Notes under the pieces: model-generated
Seen by the model: only the letters and a program-made list of their open reading frames with translations
Told to the model about the DNA's origin: nothing
Databases searched by the model: none
Source of the DNA: Enterobacteria phage phiC600P9
Sequence record: MZ681930.1
Direction: 5' to 3' (one strand)
Length of the DNA: 64,000 nt
Made by a program: the position numbers and the translations under genes
Shown here: positions 5,153 through 62,382 of the stretch, piece after piece
Numbering within the stretch: position 1 is the first letter of the stretch
Layout of the letters: every line of letters begins with the position of its first letter

Positions 5153-5572
5153 TTATTCCTTAAAATGTGCTTTCAACATCTGATACAAGGACCATGCCTG
5201 TTCATTATTTTCAATAGTAACTTTCATTACCGGGAATTCTGTGAAATCTTCTATCTGTTCTTGCTCTTCCTGCTCTTGTTCTTCAGCTGCCTGGTATGGA
5301 TTTTCCACTTCATCAAAGAACCCAGCTTCGTTAGTAGAGAGCCAGATAAAGTTTTCGTCAAGGATATCAGCGCCGGCACAACGTCTGAGTACACCTGTGG
5401 ATGTCACAATTTTAGTAGGACGCCCAAGATAATCAGCATCTAAAATTTTAAAAGGTTCCATACCTAAACGTCGTGCATAGATTCCGTTATCAGTATGGTC
5501 TTTAATAAAATTTTCTTGAGCTTGTTTATTTTTAAATTGATACCATTTATTAACTTCAAATTTAATAGCCAT
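5153..5572 (-). CDS. hypothetical protein with acidic EQ-repeat segment (size matches T4 goF, unverified)
   Basis: 139-aa ORF. Confidence 0.5.
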
Positions 5573-5787
5573 TAATAAATTTCCTTCCAGTAAGTTGTAC
5601 CGTCTTCAGTAATTTCACGAAATACGCCATAAATTGGTTGTTTATCACCAACCTTTTCATACACATAAACCGAAGTCAAGTGAGTAAACTTAATGGTGTG
5701 TTCCTTTTGAACTACTACCAAATCTGGATCGAATAATACATCTTCAAATTCGTCATTAGTGCAGTTCTGAACAATTTTACGTTTCAT
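5572..5787 (-). CDS. small hypothetical protein (length matches T4 Cef, unverified)
   Basis: 71-aa ORF. Confidence 0.45.
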
Positions 5788-14868: not shown

Positions 14869-14898
14869 ATTATACCATACTCATTTTAGAAAGTAAAC
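14869..14898 (-). promoter_or_regulatory. early promoter (GTTTAC-N18-TGGTATAAT)
   Basis: plus strand attataccatactcattttagaaagtaaac. Confidence 0.55.
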
Positions 14899-14911
14899 CG
14901 GTAAAATGAAA

Positions 14912-14933
14912 AAGGACTCCCGAGGGAGTCCTT
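14912..14933 (-). terminator. intrinsic terminator-like hairpin downstream of soc
   Basis: minus strand GGACUCCC-UCG-GGAGUCC followed by UUUUUCAUUUU. Confidence 0.55.
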
Positions 14934-14939
14934 GAATTA

Positions 14940-15176
14940 TTAACCACCTATTTGTGTAGGCGTAAACATTGCAGCATTCTTAGTTTTCCAATCAGCTGCA
15001 TCAGAAACTACAGTAGAATATGCTGCCTTTTCTGACGGAAAGATCTGATAATGAGAATCTGCGATACGGTGCTCGTTAGAATAAATTTCAAACGGAACAG
15101 AAACTTCCATACCTTTAACTTCTTTGCCTTCACCCGCTGGATGAGTAAAGGTCTTGATGTTAACGAAACCACCCAT
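14940..15176 (-). CDS. soc: small outer capsid protein Soc
   Basis: 78-aa ORF with T4 Soc-like motifs (YVNIKTF, HYQIFPSEKAAYSTV); late promoter just upstream. Confidence 0.85.
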   Translation of the reverse strand: MGGFVNIKTFTHPAGEGKEVKGMEVSVPFEIYSNEHRIADSHYQIFPSEKAAYSTVVSDAADWKTKNAAMFTPTQIGG

Positions 15177-15207
15177 AATAAACTCCTTTATTGTTTAATT
15201 ACAAGTG

Positions 15208-15215
15208 TATTTATA
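15208..15215 (-). promoter_or_regulatory. late promoter TATAAATA for soc
   Basis: plus strand tatttata about 30 nt upstream of the soc ATG. Confidence 0.65.
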
Positions 15216-15389
15216 TCAGTCTTCAATGAAAACTTGTGCCAGGAATTCGTGTTCATCTTGAATTTGTTTATATAAAGCCATTACAGCATTTATATTAGAG
15301 CTATCTACTTTAAGCTGATAAGCATACCACTCGTATAAATTAATTAAAGCTTTTTGTCGTCTAATAAATTCTTCTTTGGATATTTTCAT
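15216..15389 (-). CDS. small hypothetical protein (hand-called)
   Basis: 57-aa ORF MKISKEEFIRRQKALINLYEWYAYQL...; ATGA overlap with upstream ORF. Confidence 0.45.
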   Translation of the reverse strand: MKISKEEFIRRQKALINLYEWYAYQLKVDSSNINAVMALYKQIQDEHEFLAQVFIED

Positions 15390-15598
15390 TTTGAATGCTC
15401 TATAATTAATTTTAAGGCTTCTTCACTGACAAAAATTTCATCAGGACCTTCTTCTACAACCCAATCAACCCAATCAACCACACGAAGCTGATTAGATAAG
15501 AGCTCACATACGAGCTCCTTGTCATAATTTTTAAATAGCTGGTCAATACGTTTCTTGCGGGCTTTCTTAAGCTGGCGTTTATTTAAACGAGCCATCAA
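15386..15598 (-). CDS. small hypothetical protein
   Basis: 70-aa ORF coupled to gene 56. Confidence 0.5.
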   Translation of the reverse strand: MMARLNKRQLKKARKKRIDQLFKNYDKELVCELLSNQLRVVDWVDWVVEEGPDEIFVSEEALKLIIEHSK

Positions 15599-16113
15599 TA
15601 ACCTCGGTCTTGACGAGCGAAGTTTTCAGCATTTTTCAGATAATAAAGTTTAAAGATTTCTTCAGCCGTAAGACCGAGACCTTGGAACATGTTCAGAACG
15701 AAATGAAGAATATCAATCATTTCAAATTTAATTTCCAACTGGTCTTGCGGAGACAAATCAGTAATTAGAGTTTCACGACGTTCACCATGCTGTGACTTCC
15801 AAGGTTTCCATACAGCAGATGCATCTTTTTCACCATTGCTCATACCGCCAAGAGATGTCAGAAGTTCACGGAATTCATCGTCAATATAATCTTTTTGATT
15901 ACGCAGCCAATCAACAACTTCGCCTGCAGTAGCCAAATCATCAGGATGACGGTTATATTCAGGTTTATCTTTAGCTAAACGAACCTGCAAAGATTTCTGC
16001 ATATCAAGCATAACTTGCAGTGGGTCTTTTTCATCACCGAGAATATCCCAGTATTCATTTTGAGCTTTATCAGCGCCTTCGATCAGATGACTACATTCGT
16101 TGAAATGTGGCAT
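15595..16113 (-). CDS. 56: dCTP pyrophosphatase (dCTPase-dUTPase)
   Basis: 172-aa ORF closely matching T4 gp56 as recalled (NEYWDILGDEKDPLQVMLDMQ..., EEIFKLYYLKN). Confidence 0.9.
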   Translation of the reverse strand: MPHFNECSHLIEGADKAQNEYWDILGDEKDPLQVMLDMQKSLQVRLAKDKPEYNRHPDDLATAGEVVDWLRNQKDYIDDEFRELLTSLGGMSNGEKDASAVWKPWKSQHGERRETLITDLSPQDQLEIKFEMIDILHFVLNMFQGLGLTAEEIFKLYYLKNAENFARQDRGY

Positions 16114-16149
16114 GTTATTTTTCCTTTCAATTCATGGGTTAGTAGATTA

Positions 16150-16175
16150 ATTATACAATAAATATATAAAGCAAT
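16150..16175 (-). promoter_or_regulatory. middle promoter (MotA box TTGCTTTA + 11 nt + TATAAT) for gene 56
   Basis: minus strand ATTGCTTTATATATTTATTGTATAAT. Confidence 0.5.
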
Positions 16176-16186
16176 AAGGAGGACAT

Positions 16187-16387
16187 ATGGTACAAAAATT
16201 AATGGCACTTGTTAATGCCATAAAAGGTAATAAAAAACGTATAGCTTTTACTATTTCTGCTATGATAGGAATTTTACTTTGGAATTTTGTTTTATCACCA
16301 ATTGCTATTGCTCATGGTGTTAGTATTCCAGTAATTACTCTTGATACATTCGTAGATTTAGCATTTGCTTTAGTTGGGTTAATTTAA
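16187..16387 (+). CDS. candidate plus-strand small membrane protein
   Basis: 66-aa hydrophobic ORF with AAGGAGG RBS 6 nt before the ATG; may be a shadow of AT-rich intergenic DNA. Confidence 0.3.
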   Translation: MVQKLMALVNAIKGNKKRIAFTISAMIGILLWNFVLSPIAIAHGVSIPVITLDTFVDLAFALVGLI

Positions 16388-17412
16388 ATCTTAGCATATT
16401 TAGATAGCCGCATTTTAGCCATCAGCCCCTGTGCAATATTATTTTTCATATATTCCATAATTTGTTCAGGGGTTGCACCTTCCTTTCTAATCATATCATT
16501 GACATCTTTTGATTTCCAGGGAGATTTGTCCCAAAACATAACCCTTTCTCCTGCATCAACTAATTTAGTCATTCGTTTAATAGTATCAGGGTGACGAGGT
16601 TCATTATCCAAAACCCATACTCGTCTATCTTTAAATGGAACAATTTCTAGGTCTAATTGACCACCTGTAATAGCTATACCATTTTCAATAAAAAGTGAAT
16701 CTATAGGTCCTTCTAGAACATATACATCACCATCTTTAACCCGTTCGACTCCATAGATTTTTGTTGCCTCAGGATAAGCTTTGATGGTGATATATTTTTG
16801 AGGAGCATCTTTCTTTAATGCACGTCCTTGAAAAGACTCAGCTTTTCCATTAGCATTATAAATTGGAATAACAAGACGAGGCTCAGGTATTTCCTTTTTA
16901 TATGTTCCTGGTGCTATACTATTAACTAATTTAGGCCATTCGGTTGTAAACCAAAGATATTTCCATTTATCCTTTGGAATACAACGAGCTTTTACGTATT
17001 TTATAATTGGATGGTCTTCCGCCAGTTTATCTAATCTAACGCATGACGGAAGAGATTTAATTATTTTCTTCTCAGGTTGTTTAGGAAGTTCTTTAAGTTT
17101 TTCTACTGGACGACTTTTACCTTTTTCTTTTCTTATTTCAAAGATATACTCACGATATAAATCGGGTTCAAACTCCTTTAAATATATTCCGATTGGTGCA
17201 TGATAGTTACAGTTATAACAATGAATATTTCCTTCATTATTATCGCCATAATACCATCCACGGGCTTTATTTTGGTCGGTTTTTGAATCTCCACAAACAG
17301 GGCATCTAAACCGCAATTTAAAAGTTGAACTATTATTTACTTGTGTGAATTTAGGTAAATGAGCTAATGCACGATATGCAAACTCATTATCAATCCAAGG
17401 TATTGATGACAT
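16384..17412 (-). CDS. 61: DNA primase
   Basis: 342-aa ORF matching T4 gp61 length; zinc ribbon CPVCGDS...CYNCNYH plus Toprim-like region. Confidence 0.9.
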   Translation of the reverse strand: MSSIPWIDNEFAYRALAHLPKFTQVNNSSTFKLRFRCPVCGDSKTDQNKARGWYYGDNNEGNIHCYNCNYHAPIGIYLKEFEPDLYREYIFEIRKEKGKSRPVEKLKELPKQPEKKIIKSLPSCVRLDKLAEDHPIIKYVKARCIPKDKWKYLWFTTEWPKLVNSIAPGTYKKEIPEPRLVIPIYNANGKAESFQGRALKKDAPQKYITIKAYPEATKIYGVERVKDGDVYVLEGPIDSLFIENGIAITGGQLDLEIVPFKDRRVWVLDNEPRHPDTIKRMTKLVDAGERVMFWDKSPWKSKDVNDMIRKEGATPEQIMEYMKNNIAQGLMAKMRLSKYAKI

Positions 17413-17414
17413 TT

Positions 17415-17579
17415 TTACTCTTCTTTTTCTTTAGATTCCTCTTTTTTCTTTTTAGGAATCTGTTCAGGACCTTTATTTACTACAGCGCCTGATGTTGTTC
17501 CAGTGGAGATATTTTCAGGATTACCACCTGAATCTCCAGCTACCATATCTTCTTTGATAAATTCTTTATATGTTTTCAT
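17415..17579 (-). CDS. small protein with internal-protein-like capsid targeting sequence (hand-called)
   Basis: 54-aa ORF MKTYKEFIKEDMVAGDSGG...KKKKEESKEKEE; N-terminus resembles the T4 IP targeting sequence MKTYQEFIAE; AGAGG RBS. Confidence 0.45.
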   Translation of the reverse strand: MKTYKEFIKEDMVAGDSGGNPENISTGTTSGAVVNKGPEQIPKKKKEESKEKEE

Positions 17580-17591
17580 ATTAGCCTCTAA

Positions 17592-17885
17592 TTATTCACC
17601 TACCACTTCAGCGATGATATTTTTATTATTGAAGTTTTTATCACAATACAGAACGTAATTATACTGCATTACACCACCAGACTTAAGTTGTTTTTGTACT
17701 TCAGCTTTCATTTCAGGGCGATCACGCTCAACGATATTCATAATATCTGCTTCAATCTGAGTTTCAACTTCAGTCTGATCTGCAGTCATAGACCACTCAC
17801 ACAAATCTTTATCATAACCCGCCATAGCAGGCTGAGCAGCACAAGAAGCCAAAGCAAAAATTGCAGCAAAAACAAATTTTTTCAT
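17592..17885 (-). CDS. secreted/lipoprotein-like small protein
   Basis: 97-aa ORF with signal peptide MKKFVFAAIFALASCAAQPAMA. Confidence 0.55.
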   Translation of the reverse strand: MKKFVFAAIFALASCAAQPAMAGYDKDLCEWSMTADQTEVETQIEADIMNIVERDRPEMKAEVQKQLKSGGVMQYNYVLYCDKNFNNKNIIAEVVGE

Positions 17886-17913
17886 GATAATCTCCTCAGT
17901 AGTTTATGTTTAT

Positions 17914-17943
17914 ATAGTATCTCAATTTCCAACAAAAGTAAAC
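17914..17943 (-). promoter_or_regulatory. early promoter (GTTTAC-N18-TACTAT)
   Basis: plus strand atagtatctcaatttccaacaaaagtaaac. Confidence 0.45.
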
Positions 17944-18197
17944 TATTTTATTTCCTCAAGTTCGTTAATCAATAAAAGTTCTCTGACGCTAAAAACAAAG
18001 AAAAATGTGTTCCCATCAACCAGAGCATGACCGCTAATAGAACACCCTCTGCGGAATTTAGAAACTTCACAATCTAGAACTGTAAAGGGTTTTAATCCTA
18101 TGACTTTAGCTGTGCGTCTATTCAGTTCACAACCACTTGCGAATTTTTCCAAATCTTCTTCTGATTTAAACTGATATTCTCTATTAACTAGCATCAT
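17943..18197 (-). CDS. small hypothetical protein
   Basis: 84-aa ORF. Confidence 0.45.
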   Translation of the reverse strand: MMLVNREYQFKSEEDLEKFASGCELNRRTAKVIGLKPFTVLDCEVSKFRRGCSISGHALVDGNTFFFVFSVRELLLINELEEIK

Positions 18198-18229
18198 TTT
18201 CTTTTCTCCGCGATTAGCTGATAGAATTA

Positions 18230-18258
18230 CTATAACACAACTCTATCAGCTTGTAAAC
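18230..18258 (-). promoter_or_regulatory. early promoter (GTTTAC-N17-TTATAG)
   Basis: plus strand ctataacacaactctatcagcttgtaaac; resembles the srd promoter. Confidence 0.45.
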
Positions 18259-18260
18259 TA

Positions 18261-18545
18261 CTATTTTACTAGCATCAATAACTGTTTCTCTAACTTGACG
18301 ATTTTACGAAAGTATCTTTTGCATTGGCGAATCTGCCGCTTCGTAGGGCGCACAGCAAACTTAATAAATTCCACTCGACCAAATGGAGGACTTTCTTCTG
18401 CTGGAATATCTAACACCAATTCCCACGTATCTGCAACAAGTGCTTTGAATTGAGTATTTTTCCTGACGTTATACGGAGTAGGTTTAAATAAAACGATATG
18501 CATATTACCCTCGGCAATCCACTTCGCATACTTTCTTGTCATCAA
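18261..18545 (-). CDS. small basic hypothetical protein
   Basis: 94-aa ORF. Confidence 0.5.
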   Translation of the reverse strand: MMTRKYAKWIAEGNMHIVLFKPTPYNVRKNTQFKALVADTWELVLDIPAEESPPFGRVEFIKFAVRPTKRQIRQCKRYFRKIVKLEKQLLMLVK

Positions 18546-18687
18546 TGAAAGCTTTAACTAATGCTTTATTAACTTCAGCATATTGAGTAGTAGCCCATTG
18601 AACGTCATCTTTCATCATTGTGATTTCTTTAGTAAACATGCTTTCATTCTTAAACCACCCCATAAAAACTACCTTTACCAATTCCAT
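18505..18687 (-). CDS. small hypothetical protein
   Basis: 60-aa ORF. Confidence 0.4.
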   Translation of the reverse strand: MELVKVVFMGWFKNESMFTKEITMMKDDVQWATTQYAEVNKALVKAFIDDKKVCEVDCRG

Positions 18688-18716
18688 AACAATCTCCTCA
18701 TTTAACCAACAAGACT

Positions 18717-18746
18717 ACTATACCATAGTCTTGTCAGCTTGTAAAC
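18717..18746 (-). promoter_or_regulatory. early promoter (GTTTAC-N18-TGGTATAGT)
   Basis: plus strand actataccatagtcttgtcagcttgtaaac. Confidence 0.5.
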
Positions 18747-20173
18747 TAAAATTTTAATTCATTTGCCAAAGCATCTAACTGGGCTCGAGTAGATTCATTT
18801 CTTTGATAGCGATTCTGCTCAGCTTGTATCTGTTGTGAACCTGCTACTTCGTTCACTTCAGTTGGAGTAGAATCTTGTTCAATTTCTACCCATTTCTGAT
18901 TTCCTTTTTGAACACCCATCAAAAACTTATTCCATTTATTCTTATCACCATATCGTGATTTGATTTGCTTAATGAGTTGCTGTTCAGCAGCTGCTAGCTC
19001 CTCGGTTTCAATGACCGCAAGCATAAAATCAGCTGTCGCTGGAAGACCAGCAGATTCTGCAATATCGCTCATGTTAACATCGGAAGAGTCCCAAGCTTGT
19101 TTACCAACCTGTGCTGCAGTCCAAAGAACAGTTTCGGTTTCAACAGCCAGAGCACGCAATTCCTCTGCGATAGCTTTAACAGTTGTGTAACTTTTTTCTG
19201 AATAAACTCTAATGCGGCAAGATTTACAAATACCTAGATAGTCGACAATAATGATTGTTGGAACAAAATTCTTCTTGAGCTTCAATTCGTTTAAAAGTGA
19301 TCGAAATGTATTAGCGTCTGCTCCACCAGTAGGATACTGTTTAACGATTAAACGACCAAGAGTAGATTTCTCACGCCATTTTTCCATTTTTCCTTTATAT
19401 TCAGCGTAAGAAATATGCCCATCATCAATGTCATCAAGAGAAACATCGAGCATATTAGCGTCAATACGTTTAGCACAGACTTCTTCTGCCATTTCCATTG
19501 AAATGTAAAGAACATTATGACCGAGTTGTAAATAATCTGCTGCCAATGAACATAGACCTAATGACTTACCAACGTTAACACCAGCCATTAAAACGTTCAG
19601 TGTTCCAGTCTCAGCTCCGCCTTTAGTAATTTTATTTAGAATTTTGAGTTTAAATGGAACCTTACGAGCTTTATTCATATAAGATAGCCAACGTGCTTCA
19701 TAGTCATCCATCCAATCATGGCCAACGTAGCTATCAAATGAAATTGATAATGCTTGGCGCATGATGTCAGGAATAGCACCTACATCTGGCATTTTCTTAT
19801 TTCGTTTTTCTGGAGGAAGCTCAGCATTAGTTTGAATTTCAATTATTTTAGACGTGGCATTAAACATCGCCCTTTGCTGAACATATTTTTCTGTTTCTTT
19901 TACTAACCAGCTGTGGTCTTCTGGAGAATCGGTTAGTTTCGAAATAAGTGTTTTTACACCAGAATATTCTGTTTCAGTAAATGAACTATTTTCTAATGCA
20001 ACATTTAACGCATTAATAGATGGAACGCTATGGTACTCATTGACATGAGATTTAATTAATTTGAATGTATTTTTAGCTGGACCACTTTCAAAATATTCTG
20101 AATCCATATATGGCCAAACTTTTGAAAAATAAGCTTGATCAAATATAAGATGAGAAAGAATAATTTCTACCAC
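18746..20173 (-). CDS. 41: replicative DNA helicase (DnaB-like)
   Basis: 475-aa ORF matching T4 gp41 length; Walker A GVNVGKS, RecA-like core. Confidence 0.9.
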   Translation of the reverse strand: MVEIILSHLIFDQAYFSKVWPYMDSEYFESGPAKNTFKLIKSHVNEYHSVPSINALNVALENSSFTETEYSGVKTLISKLTDSPEDHSWLVKETEKYVQQRAMFNATSKIIEIQTNAELPPEKRNKKMPDVGAIPDIMRQALSISFDSYVGHDWMDDYEARWLSYMNKARKVPFKLKILNKITKGGAETGTLNVLMAGVNVGKSLGLCSLAADYLQLGHNVLYISMEMAEEVCAKRIDANMLDVSLDDIDDGHISYAEYKGKMEKWREKSTLGRLIVKQYPTGGADANTFRSLLNELKLKKNFVPTIIIVDYLGICKSCRIRVYSEKSYTTVKAIAEELRALAVETETVLWTAAQVGKQAWDSSDVNMSDIAESAGLPATADFMLAVIETEELAAAEQQLIKQIKSRYGDKNKWNKFLMGVQKGNQKWVEIEQDSTPTEVNEVAGSQQIQAEQNRYQRNESTRAQLDALANELKF

Positions 20174-20182
20174 ACTTACTCC

Positions 20183-20545
20183 TTAAAAGAATTTAAATTT
20201 TTTCTTTGACCTTTTATTAAATGCATCTTGTAGTTGCATTGTAATACATTTTTCTACATGAGGAGCTAACTCAGCTTTTCTTTCTTGGTCAAGAACAGCA
20301 AAGTCCATTACGACTTTTCCATCAACCCAATCTAATTTTGTCACATACACAATGTGTGTAGAACCGTCTTCTAGTTTAATGACAATCTCCTGGATAACAT
20401 TTTCCATGGCAGATTTAATTATCTTAAGAGATTCATTAAAAAGGCGTTCTTTTCTTTCTTCTTCCCCCTCCGAAGAGGGGGATTCGTCGATAATTTCTAG
20501 ATCTAAATCTAAATCATCTTTATTCATTAAATTCTTCCATATCAC
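20183..20545 (-). CDS. 40: gp40-like protein
   Basis: 120-aa ORF between uvsX and 41 as in T4. Confidence 0.5.
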   Translation of the reverse strand: MIWKNLMNKDDLDLDLEIIDESPSSEGEEERKERLFNESLKIIKSAMENVIQEIVIKLEDGSTHIVYVTKLDWVDGKVVMDFAVLDQERKAELAPHVEKCITMQLQDAFNKRSKKKFKFF

Positions 20546-21701
20546 TTAACTGTTCTAGGTCAGTTTCTAAATCAGCTGCTGATTTACTTTTACTTTCTGG
20601 AGATTTAAATTTTTCAACCTTTGAGTTAATTAATTCATCAACTTCAGCTTCAACAATTTCATTACTATCAATAGCACCTAACTGATAAGCACGTTTAATA
20701 GCATCTCGGAATGGTTGATGCTTAAATAAAGGACCCCAGAATGTAGTGCAATTGGTATCTTTTGCACGCCAAGATTTTTCTTCGCGAATCATCTCGCCAG
20801 TTTCTTCGTCAAGAAATTCACGAGCATACCAACCATTTTTAGGTTTTACTACAAACCCTAATTCAAGAGCCATATCTAACAATCCAGAATAAGGATCGAT
20901 GCCGCCGTCAAATTTAACATCAATAAAGAATTTACTTTTTTCTTTGACGGTACGAGATTTTTCTACATTTAGAACAAATTGATATCCCTGAAGATCGGAA
21001 CCATCTTTAATCTGGCGCTTACCGATAATGAATACAGTATCAGCCGAATACATTACGCCTGTACCACCTGTCATCACGGTTTTACTAAACATTTCAATTG
21101 TTTCAATTGTATGGTTAACCGCAACACATGGAATGTTTTTAATACTAAAATAAGGAGTAACAATACGGAATAATGACTTCAGTGATTTAGCACGAGTCAT
21201 ATCTGCCACAGATTTTTCATTCAAGGCATCTTCCGTTTCTTTCTTAGAAGCCATATTACCGATTGAGTCGATGAATACAATAACCTTTTCACCACGCTCA
21301 ATCGCTTCAAGCTGATTCACCATATCAATTTTCAGTTGTTCAACTGACTGGATTGGTGTATGAATTACTCGTTCCGGGTCAACTCCCATGGATCGCAAAT
21401 AAGCTGGAGTGATACCAAATTCGCTATCATAGAATAAACAAACCGCATCAGGATATTTGTTCAAATATGCCGCAACCATAGTCAAAGACATATTTGATTT
21501 AAAGTGTTTAGAAGGACCTGCAAAAATGGTTAAACCAGACTGCATACCACCGTCAATCGCACCTGAAATAGCGATATTAAGCATTGGAATTTTTGTACGG
21601 ATTACATCCTTTTCATTAAAGAATTTAGATGTAGTCAGTTCAGCAGTCATTTTAGAAGTGGAAGCTTTAATCAAACGGGATTTTAAATCTGCAATAGACA
21701 T
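20520..21701 (-). CDS. uvsX: UvsX recombinase (RecA/Rad51 family)
   Basis: 393-aa ORF closely matching T4 UvsX as recalled. Confidence 0.9.
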   Translation of the reverse strand: MSIADLKSRLIKASTSKMTAELTTSKFFNEKDVIRTKIPMLNIAISGAIDGGMQSGLTIFAGPSKHFKSNMSLTMVAAYLNKYPDAVCLFYDSEFGITPAYLRSMGVDPERVIHTPIQSVEQLKIDMVNQLEAIERGEKVIVFIDSIGNMASKKETEDALNEKSVADMTRAKSLKSLFRIVTPYFSIKNIPCVAVNHTIETIEMFSKTVMTGGTGVMYSADTVFIIGKRQIKDGSDLQGYQFVLNVEKSRTVKEKSKFFIDVKFDGGIDPYSGLLDMALELGFVVKPKNGWYAREFLDEETGEMIREEKSWRAKDTNCTTFWGPLFKHQPFRDAIKRAYQLGAIDSNEIVEAEVDELINSKVEKFKSPESKSKSAADLETDLEQLSDMEEFNE

Positions 21702-60972: not shown

Positions 60973-61446
60973 TTATTTGAACGATTTAACGTACTGAATA
61001 GAACCTTTACTATTCACGAAAGCGATTTTACCATTTTTATTATACATGGTAGCAGTACGCTGATAGCCATAAGTTTGCTTACCAGATTGATAACCAACTA
61101 ATGCAAAATTATCTTCACCCATTTTATTCTGTTTAGCGCGAATGCGTTCATGACCATGTGCCATAAGAACCTTAGCATCACCAGTTGCAATGGATCGACG
61201 AGTTTTTTCATCTTCAACTGTATTAACAAAGTCGTCAAATGAATCAAATTTAGCATGAGATTTATTATACAGTTTTCCATCTACTGCATAATTATATCCC
61301 TGTACATCCATCTCAACTTCTGTACCATCATCCAATACAGCAGTGATTTTCTGTCCTTTTTTAAATTTCAAAAGATCAGTAAAAGATTCAGCAATAATTT
61401 GAGAATTAATAGCTGCTTCAGTAATAAATTCTTGATATGTTTTCAT
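60973..61446 (-). CDS. internal (capsid-packaged) protein with capsid targeting sequence
   Basis: 157-aa ORF beginning MKTYQEFITE, the T4 IP targeting-sequence signature; at the ipII/ipIII locus next to e. Confidence 0.7.
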   Translation of the reverse strand: MKTYQEFITEAAINSQIIAESFTDLLKFKKGQKITAVLDDGTEVEMDVQGYNYAVDGKLYNKSHAKFDSFDDFVNTVEDEKTRRSIATGDAKVLMAHGHERIRAKQNKMGEDNFALVGYQSGKQTYGYQRTATMYNKNGKIAFVNSKGSIQYVKSFK

Positions 61447-61462
61447 GTGTATCCTTTAATTT

Positions 61463-61780
61463 TTATTCTTTAGGGAAGTTTTTAGAATATGCATCATAAA
61501 GCTTATTTCCAATACGGCGGAAAACTCTAGCCGCAAAACGATTTTCTGGGTTTTTAATCATGATTTGCATCATATAAGTACCCGCGTCAGAAAGAGCTTC
61601 TTCATAGTACCCGTTAATTTCTTTAAGAGTCCTACGTTTACCACCAGGACCATCAACAGTGATTTTCCATTTACCTGTAGAAGTGCGACTTGGCGGCTCA
61701 ACTTGTTCAATCCAGATATAACCGCCTTCTACACGTTGTCCTGCAGCAGATTCTGCAATAAATTCTTTATAGGTTTTCAT
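61463..61780 (-). CDS. internal (capsid-packaged) protein with capsid targeting sequence
   Basis: 105-aa ORF beginning MKTYKEFIAE. Confidence 0.7.
   Translation of the reverse strand: MKTYKEFIAESAAGQRVEGGYIWIEQVEPPSRTSTGKWKITVDGPGGKRRTLKEINGYYEEALSDAGTYMMQIMIKNPENRFAARVFRRIGNKLYDAYSKNFPKE

Positions 61781-61851: not shown

Positions 61852-62382
<531 letters not shown>

Follow-up and report, generated by a model that had tools for sequence, protein, structure and literature searches.

The window analysed here is the whole stretch of 64,000 nucleotides (nt) from Enterobacteria phage phiC600P9 (record MZ681930.1), and our main subject is gene 61.1, one of a row of small open reading frames (ORFs) between the primase gene, 61, and the replicative helicase gene, 41. 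Window positions 16384-20173 showed 100% DNA identity to phiC600P9 MT630408.1 (Tequatrovirus) and, with several hundred T4-like phages, an identity of 97-98%. The genes of this region all lie on the minus strand, and five ORFs fill the interval that runs from the gene 61 start (17412) to the gene 41 stop (18746); the ORF calls bore out the number and coordinates given in the initial annotation, which had been made from the letters alone. The locus is shown to be the early accessory cluster found between genes 41 and 61 of T4-type phages, here in a T4-like phage. The 54-amino-acid (aa) product of gene 61.1, gp61.1, has three parts, the first two of which resemble the capsid targeting sequence (CTS) of the phage internal proteins (IPs) and the N-fist of gp23, the major capsid protein:

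17415..17579, minus strand: gene 61.1, 54 aa; start CTS-like, core resembling the gp23 N-fist, tail charged
17550..17579, minus strand: CTS-like propeptide MKTYKEFIKE, 61.1 codons 1-10, ending in a predicted gp21 protease site, I-K-E↓D (the arrow marks the cut)
17466..17549, minus strand: N-fist-like core DMVAGDSGGNPENISTGTTSGAVVNKGP, 61.1 codons 11-38, homologous to gp23* residues 66-93

gp61.1 as a small relative of the gp23 N-terminus

gp61.1 matched phrog_1823 (E 7e-34) and is 96% identical to T4 gp61.1, the differences being Y4F and T26I, so that the T4 protein starts MKTFKEFIKE. Neither Pfam nor NCBIfam placed it in a family. When gp61.1 was compared by BLASTP with the phage's own gp23, residues 2-38 aligned with gp23 residues 57-93 at 43% identity (pairwise E 1e-8), and a comparison with every ORF in the genome found gp23 as its sole paralog (E 2e-5). 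When family profiles were run against the Protein Data Bank (PDB; 177,635 distinct sequences), T4 gp23 was the only significant match, with E values of 3.3e-11 for a profile of the long-form homologues described below and 1.2e-5 for the short forms. gp23 loses its first 65 residues at a maturation site, L-T-E↓A, and the I-K-E↓D of gp61.1 stands in register with that site, the propeptide aligning with gp23 57-65. Residues 11-36 of gp61.1 then fall on residues 66-91 of gp23*, the N-fist, and a tail of Lys and Glu follows the core. The N-fist is an unusual 25-residue structure. Before the head expands it lies within, in disordered form; in the expanded head it is on the outside, where it contacts four subunits and helps to form the Soc binding site (PMC7136217, PMC9958956).

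gp61.1 thus has in common with gp23 the homology over 57-93, the cleavage site in register, and the Gly, Asp, Asn and Pro positions of the N-fist, but it lacks the HK97-fold body and the N-arm, and its charged tail replaces the Gol/N-arm segment. Within the core, gp23 His72 is replaced by Ser or Ala and Tyr74 by Gly, and gp61.1 alone has a Met at P2'. In Pfam the HK97-fold body is represented by the Gp23 model, PF07068. It matches gp23 residues 88-517 only, so that delta-piece, maturation site and N-fist fall outside it, and neither gp61.1 nor the long forms matched it. gp61.1 has no Pfam hit because PF07068 begins at gp23 residue 88, and it is therefore to be read as a paralog of the N-terminal segment of gp23, not as a capsid protein. 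At the level of sequence, these comparisons show gp61.1 to be a conserved mini-paralog of the gp23 maturation junction plus N-fist.

We found no paper that discusses the similarity between gp61.1 and gp23; the full-text occurrences of gp61.1 were in gene tables only. Database names such as "major capsid domain-containing protein" reflect an automatic pick-up of the similarity. Homologues of 60-165 aa, both long and short, carry the public annotations 'major capsid protein' or 'capsid protein', the N-fist segment being all that they have in common with the real capsid protein. One tblastn match so named, in Pantoea phage Phynn (MN038175.1), was considered as a true capsid gene and rejected, for it proved to be a long-form gp61.1 under the wrong name, lying upstream of the primase gene. 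The error recurs often enough to be worth correcting.

The other end of gp61.1 points to the internal proteins. A scan of the whole phiC600P9 genome for CTS-like starts returned gp61.1 and four IP-like ORFs, which start MKTYQEFITE and MKTYKEFIAE (both in the window) and MKSYAQFLNE and MKTFKEFATK (both outside it); for two of these four, the PHROG assigned bears the annotation internal virion protein or internal head protein. The gp61.1 start is identical to MKTYKEFIAE at nine of ten positions and to MKTYQEFITE at eight of ten. For IPIII, the first ten residues suffice for incorporation into the head, targeting depending mainly on residues 4 and 7 and processing on residues 8 and 10 (Mullaney & Black 1996 via PMC9026906). 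At these critical positions gp61.1 has Y4 and F7 (targeting) and I8 and E10 (processing), identical to the IPIII CTS in four cases out of four. The resemblance of MKTYKEFIKE to an internal-protein targeting sequence, first remarked on in the initial annotation, was therefore upheld, both by the critical residues and by the starts of the phage's own IP-like ORFs.

The ORF starting MKTYQEFITE (60973-61446, minus strand, 157 aa) belongs to a PHROG labelled 'internal virion protein', and that starting MKTYKEFIAE (61463-61780, minus strand, 105 aa) has a PHROG annotation with no function; each is recorded as a hypothetical protein. The two adjoin the lysozyme gene, e, on its downstream side, and two exact TATAAATA late-promoter motifs, at 62360 and 62373, precede e.

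Like T4 IPI, IPII and IPIII, gp61.1 has a ten-residue N-terminal propeptide of the same pattern, ending in an (I/L)-x-E gp21 site. Unlike them, it is encoded outside any IP locus, has no late promoter and is strongly conserved rather than hypervariable; its packaging is a prediction, and its mature part, of 44 residues, is slightly acidic and probably disordered. These likenesses and differences bear on the proposal, made in the initial annotation, that gp61.1 serves anti-defence as an effector injected in the manner of the internal proteins, which would be loaded into the head by its CTS, cleaved, ejected with the DNA, and would inhibit a host defence before phage expression begins. The conserved critical residues of the CTS speak for it, as does the fact that IPI*, a known anti-restriction factor, is among the internal proteins with such a targeting sequence, and the published context of the gene is anti-defence (PMC9391042). 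Internal proteins are, however, highly diverse between related phages, whereas few short motifs across the family are as well conserved as the gp61.1 core. Further, the supposed cargo is a paralog of a capsid protein and not a folded inhibitor, with AlphaFold suggesting disorder for the corresponding segment of the long forms, and the early transcript, the lack of a late promoter and the failure to detect the T4 protein tell, at most mildly, against it. We regard an injected effector as improbable.

Spread, forms and evolution of the gp61.1 family

By tblastn, members of the gp61.1 family were found in 1432 phage records, including phages of Escherichia, Klebsiella, Aeromonas, Acinetobacter, Enterobacter and Vibrio. 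The N-terminal fragment of gp23 was found in 1494 records of the same collection, and gp61.1 is thus near-universal among the T4-type phages in it. The expectation that the 61.x genes are hypervariable small ORFs fails for gp61.1, which has 1432 records where the N-terminus of a T4-type gp23 has 1494.

The position of the gene is also conserved. In T4-like phages, Vibrio phage nt-1, Aeromonas phage AS-zj and Acinetobacter phages, 61.1 lies directly upstream of the primase gene, and in the RB49-like phage kvi and in Pantoea phage Phynn one or two small ORFs stand between the 61.1 homologue and the primase gene. In phiC600P9 the 61.1 stop is 2 nt before the gene 61 start, and 61.1 itself has a good Shine-Dalgarno sequence, GAGG. 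The position would suit a partner or regulator of primase that is co-translated with gene 61 and whose basic tail acts on nucleic acid, the similarity to gp23 being a relic. The placement upstream of gene 61 across T4-like, Vibrio, Aeromonas, Acinetobacter, RB49-like and Pantoea phages, the 2-nt spacing in the window, the Lys/Arg-rich tails present in all lineages, and early expression together with the replication genes are all consistent with this replication role. What is conserved, however, is the capsid-like and cleavage motifs, while the sequence of the tail varies, and a relic would not have retained identities of 14-22 of 32 core positions across such distant lineages. A role in replication is accordingly judged quite unlikely.

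Distant lineages have a long form of about 150-165 aa (phrog_2086), made up of a conserved N-domain of about 70 residues, a variable linker, a motif, and a tail rich in Lys and Arg. The motif reads [LIVMF]-x-E-(D/E/S)-M-V-A-G-D-S-G-G-x-x-x-N-I-A-S-G-x-T-S-G-x-x-x-x-K-G-P. These long forms, from T4-type phages of Vibrio, Aeromonas, Acinetobacter, Salmonella and Citrobacter, resemble gp61.1 in this C-terminal motif, in the [LIVMF]-x-E site and in their position upstream of the primase gene. They differ in that a helical N-domain of about 100 residues plus linker replaces the ten-residue CTS-like start, and several are labelled 'major capsid protein'. The P1 residue is Glu in 53 of 54 long-form homologues, and P3 is L, I, V, M or F in every row read. 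Conservation in the long forms begins abruptly at P3-P4, the linker just upstream varying in both sequence and length. In many lineages the short forms start MK[TS][FY]x[ED].., also when a stretch of 10-15 residues lies between this start and the xxE↓DMVAGD site, and such a separation of start from cleavage site echoes the two-part, targeting and processing, character of the CTS. AlphaFold gave the N-fist-like segment of a long form confidence values mostly below 60 (means of 10-residue blocks 43-63), which suggests disorder. A likeness between the long-form N-domain and the gp23 delta-piece, proposed from a MAFFT alignment, was rejected, as the hidden Markov model alignment to gp23 starts at residue 37 and leaves the N-domain unaligned.

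The gp61.1 alignment has eighteen invariant columns, and among four close relatives 61.1 shows four synonymous and two non-synonymous differences, counted from the alignment. These results bear on the possibility that the 54-aa ORF is the decaying, functionless remnant, in Tequatroviruses, of a longer gene. It is true that the ORF is one third of the length of the form of about 155 aa in other genera, and that gp61.1 was not detected in the T4 proteome. The short forms are, however, intact in hundreds of genomes and have the good GAGG Shine-Dalgarno sequence; eighteen columns are invariant, synonymous changes exceed non-synonymous ones, and the N-termini are independently conserved. This conservation argues strongly against a functionless remnant, which we consider scarcely credible.

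The gp61.1 cores are mutually identical at 14-22 of 32 positions, as against 10-18 of 32 to any gp23 N-fist. Gene conversion, or tight co-evolution of gp61.1 with the gp23 of the same phage, was looked for in five lineages and rejected, own pairs (13-18 of 32) giving no signal over cross pairs (10-18 of 32). Because the cores are closer to each other than to the N-fists, with no within-lineage excess, the comparison indicates an ancient duplication that would have been followed by independent constraint on gp61.1.

Neighbouring genes, promoters and repeat cassettes

The genes that flank and accompany 61.1, with their promoters and repeats, are as follows:

16384..17412, minus strand: gene 61, DNA primase (flank), 342 aa, 98.5% identical to T4 gp61
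17592..17885, minus strand: sp (61.3), Spackle, 97 aa; PF25676, PDB 6x6o
17914..17943, minus strand: putative early promoter of sp-61.1(-61), TTTACT-17-TACTAT, read from the sequence
17943..18197, minus strand: orf84, accessory, 84 aa; phrog_2980, absent from T4
18205..18268, no strand: promoter cassette copy 1, a 64-nt direct repeat from the repeat search, holding a 13-nt inverted repeat, 18216-18228 / 18239-18251
18229..18257, minus strand: early promoter of orf84, TTTACA-17-TATAGT with extended -10 TG, from the promoter scan
18261..18503, minus strand: tifA (61.4), 80 aa from its ATG; DUF7279, 87% identical to T4 gp61.4
18505..18687, minus strand: dmd (61.5), 60 aa; PF17587, 100% identical to T4 Dmd
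18693..18756, no strand: promoter cassette copy 2 of the 64-nt direct repeat, lying 488 nt from copy 1, with which it has 70% identity
18717..18745, minus strand: early promoter of the dmd-tifA operon, TTTACA-17-TATAGT with extended -10 TG, from the promoter scan
18746..20173, minus strand: gene 41, replicative helicase (flank), 475 aa, 99.4% identical to T4 gp41

A search of NCBIfam with all five proteins of the interval gave no match, and three of the four neighbours of gp61.1 were identified by other means. The 60-aa ORF is Dmd (PF17587, E 2e-46; PDB 5hy3_B, E 2e-37), its sequence being 100% identical to that of T4 Dmd. Dmd is the antitoxin against the RnlA and LsoA toxins, and by its family sequence, its place beside gene 41 and its early promoter the phiC600P9 protein is predicted to counteract both. 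The 80-aa ORF is gp61.4 (Pfam DUF7279, E 5e-20; 87% identity to T4 gp61.4). The mechanical ORF call (18261-18545) started at a TTG and gave 94 aa; the ATG at 18503, which is 1 nt past the dmd stop, agrees with the T4 start and gives 80 aa. Gene 61.4 has been renamed tifA, its product being an inhibitor of the ToxN toxin, and it shares an operon with dmd (Srikant, Guegler & Laub 2022, PMC9391042), both genes being driven by the early promoter upstream of dmd (PMC9391042). The central basic cluster of TifA, RPTKRQIRQCKRYFRKIVK, is conserved with respect to T4, while the last ~10 residues differ, the phiC600P9 tail reading …EKQLLMLVK and the T4 tail …EKQFVTCDYAEILK, and the divergence falls exactly at the junction with the orf84 module. 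From its homology, its position after dmd and its basic cluster, phiC600P9 TifA is a predicted ToxN inhibitor, a variant in its C-terminal tail. Sequence searches of the PDB with orf84 and TifA gave insignificant zinc-finger matches or none, and single-sequence AlphaFold2 modelling of TifA gave a mean pLDDT of 54, an unusable model.

The 97-aa ORF is Spackle (PF25676, E 5e-45 over residues 1-96; PDB 6x6o, E 6e-61), 97% identical to T4 Sp. It had been described from the letters alone as secreted-like, and rightly so, for Spackle is exported: it has an N-terminal signal peptide, and the solved mature chain (7cn6) begins at residue 23. In the periplasm, Spackle inhibits gp5, the tail lysozyme, of phages that superinfect the cell, and it mediates superinfection exclusion (PMC7677548, PMC7650644).

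The T4 interval holds 61.1, 61.2, sp, 61.4 and dmd, and has been proposed as a possible 'anti-TA island' (TA, toxin-antitoxin; Srikant et al. 2022, PMC9391042). The phiC600P9 locus is like it in lying between genes 41 and 61, in having dmd and tifA as an operon with an early promoter, and in its identical Dmd and 87% identical TifA; it is unlike it in having no adfA, an extra 84-aa ORF with its own promoter between tifA and sp, and a different TifA tail. As an island, then, the locus is the already described T4 anti-toxin region in a variant without adfA and with one extra ORF. Its reading in the initial annotation as an early accessory and anti-defence island was correct in substance, anti-toxin activities having been published for Dmd, TifA and, in other phages, AdfA, but it was not new, and three characterised proteins had been missed. 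The accompanying statement that the 61.x region includes an anti-DarT factor is right for T4, where 61.2 is adfA, but does not hold in phiC600P9, in whose interval only 12 nt separate the sp stop from the 61.1 start. Alignment with T4 and with phage P8, both of which carry 627 nt of adfA there, showed a clean absence of more than 600 nt in phiC600P9. Homologues of adfA were found in 487 other phage records. In phage ime09 an unrelated 357-nt ORF replaces adfA between 61.1 and sp, so that the 61.2 slot is replaceable and not merely present or absent; a further 183-nt ORF lies upstream of the ime09 sp.

The extra gene, orf84, was found in 83 phage records and in just 5 clusters among 5.8 billion proteins. 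It matched phrog_2980 (E 3e-20), which is labelled goF and has 72 positions. Its N-terminal ~40 aa resemble small T4 proteins like GoF (comC-alpha), a modulator of mRNA metabolism, a likeness that comes via the PHROG label, the T4 GoF gene being 426 nt. It also has a paralog in the window, at 5153-5605, with 37% identity over 41 aa (pairwise E 3e-8). That minus-strand ORF, of 150 aa, belongs to phrog_622, and its N-terminal ~40 residues are common to orf84 and the goF-labelled PHROGs. The sequence relationships point to a family of small early T4 proteins (orf84, the 5153-5605 ORF and the goF PHROGs) apparently built on a common N-terminal module.

The cluster is organized in three early transcription units: dmd-tifA; orf84; and sp-61.1, continuing into gene 61. 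The three early promoters originally named did not fare equally well. Two of them, 18745-18717 and 18257-18229, are strong sigma-70 matches; the third, 17943-17914, matches at 8 of 12 positions, below the threshold of the scan, yet is invariant across four phages and lies directly upstream of sp. Promoter-like sites numbered 11 in the region, against 5.6 ± 2.5 in shuffles, and a scan of the region found no intrinsic terminators.

The gene orf84 is bracketed by the two copies of the 64-nt promoter cassette. PeSL cassettes have been proposed to mediate module shuffling in T4-type phages (Arbiol 2010; Comeau 2014, PMC4122927). The arrangement here is like them in that a gene which some close relatives have and others lack is flanked by repeats of an early-promoter cassette (TTTACA-N17-TATAGT), next to which there is an inverted repeat. 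It is unlike them in that this inverted repeat, instead of being clearly upstream of the promoter, overlaps its spacer and -10; two copies were compared. By analogy, PeSL-like cassettes are a plausible explanation of the gain and loss of the orf84 module. The lack of adfA, the extra ORF and the altered TifA tail may shape host range, on DarTG-carrying strains and with respect to ToxIN.

At the other end of gene 61, a plus-strand ORF at 16187-16387 encodes a strongly hydrophobic protein of 66 aa and overlaps the gene 61 3' end by 4 nt. It lies on the strand opposite to all its neighbours and resembles a small membrane protein. It is annotated in phiC600P9 and related phages (with the note 'RB69ORF029w' in ime09), and none is annotated beside T4 gene 61. 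The window is 1 base shorter than MT630408.1, position 60000 of that record being window 59999; since 14884-21673 is in register, the indel lies within 21674-59999.

Possible roles of gp61.1 in the head and outside it

The paralogy with the gp23 N-terminus suggests a part in head assembly no less than one in anti-defence. The explanation that we favour, tentatively and at somewhat under an even chance, is that gp61.1 is recruited to the prohead by its CTS-like end, is cut by gp21, and acts in the head as an N-fist-like peptide. gp61.1 would bind the prohead scaffolding core through the CTS-like end, as internal proteins do, and the prohead protease gp21 would cut it after Glu10. The cut would release an N-fist-like peptide of 44 residues, which would remain with the head as it matures or act on it; the predicted product begins at a free Asp11 and reads DMVAGDSGGNPENIS[T/I]GTTSGAVVNK.

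Several observations weigh against this proposal. We found no proteomic report of gp61.1 in virions in the literature. A late promoter for 61.1 was considered and rejected, there being no TATAAATA motif on the coding strand in 16300-20300, and the T4 61.1 transcript is classed as early. T4 gp61.1 went undetected in a time-resolved whole-cell proteome in which the ipII and ipIII proteins were detected and classed as late. With respect to incorporation into the virion these timing data are neutral to mildly negative; an early protein may persist. The mature peptide is small and slightly acidic, whereas the internal proteins are basic. Distant homologues have the helical N-domain of about 100 residues and not a ten-residue CTS, and a CTS-type mechanism may therefore apply to short forms only. 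In every genome inspected, 61.1 is beside or just upstream of the primase gene, which fits a replication-linked role equally well, and gp61.1 showed no co-evolution with the N-fist of its own gp23 in the five lineages compared.

The early transcript, the missing late promoter and the failure to see the protein late in infection speak, on the other hand, for the possibility that gp61.1 is an early cytoplasmic decoy or competitor that is not packaged. As a mimic of gp23's unfolded N-terminal junction, it would occupy a factor by which this part of gp23 is recognised, the candidates being gp21, the scaffold protein gp22 and a host immune sensor of the conserved N-terminus of the capsid protein, and would thereby time head assembly or blunt a capsid-triggered defence. 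The gene sits in the published anti-toxin island (PMC9391042). The gp23 segment that would be mimicked is disordered until capsid expansion and is therefore accessible to binding partners. Capsid proteins are known to trigger several bacterial defence systems, and the Gol segment of gp23, the activator of Lit, is within the first quarter of gp23. We take the Gol core to lie just downstream of the mimicked segment, which ends at gp23 Pro93. Typical anti-defence genes are host-specific, however, while gp61.1 is near-universal and primase-adjacent in phages of very different hosts. Further, a mimic of the trigger would be expected to activate a sensor, not to silence it, and in a pure decoy neither the P3/P1 cleavage motif nor the conserved CTS-like end has an obvious role. 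An unpackaged decoy is thus possible, though on the unlikely side.

More specific roles can be pictured. gp61.1 might be a free-standing N-fist, brought into the prohead by a CTS and freed by gp21, that fills N-fist sockets of the shell lacking gp23, as at the gp24 vertices or the portal, or it might be a soluble mimic of the exposed segment of the capsid protein that is most conserved, directed against a host capsid sensor; we consider this unlikely. If it is so, gp61.1 would be an unrecognised, near-universal small component of T4-type head biology, and the internal proteins' targeting sequence, the end of the gp23 delta-piece and the N-terminus of gp61.1 would be versions of one module for scaffold binding and cleavage. 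If packaging and cleavage do take place, gp61.1 is missing from the list of T4 head components as it stands; if they do not, it becomes a candidate regulator or decoy made from a fragment of a capsid protein. In sum, gp61.1, annotated since the 1980s and previously without an assigned function, now has a concrete and cheaply testable hypothesis.

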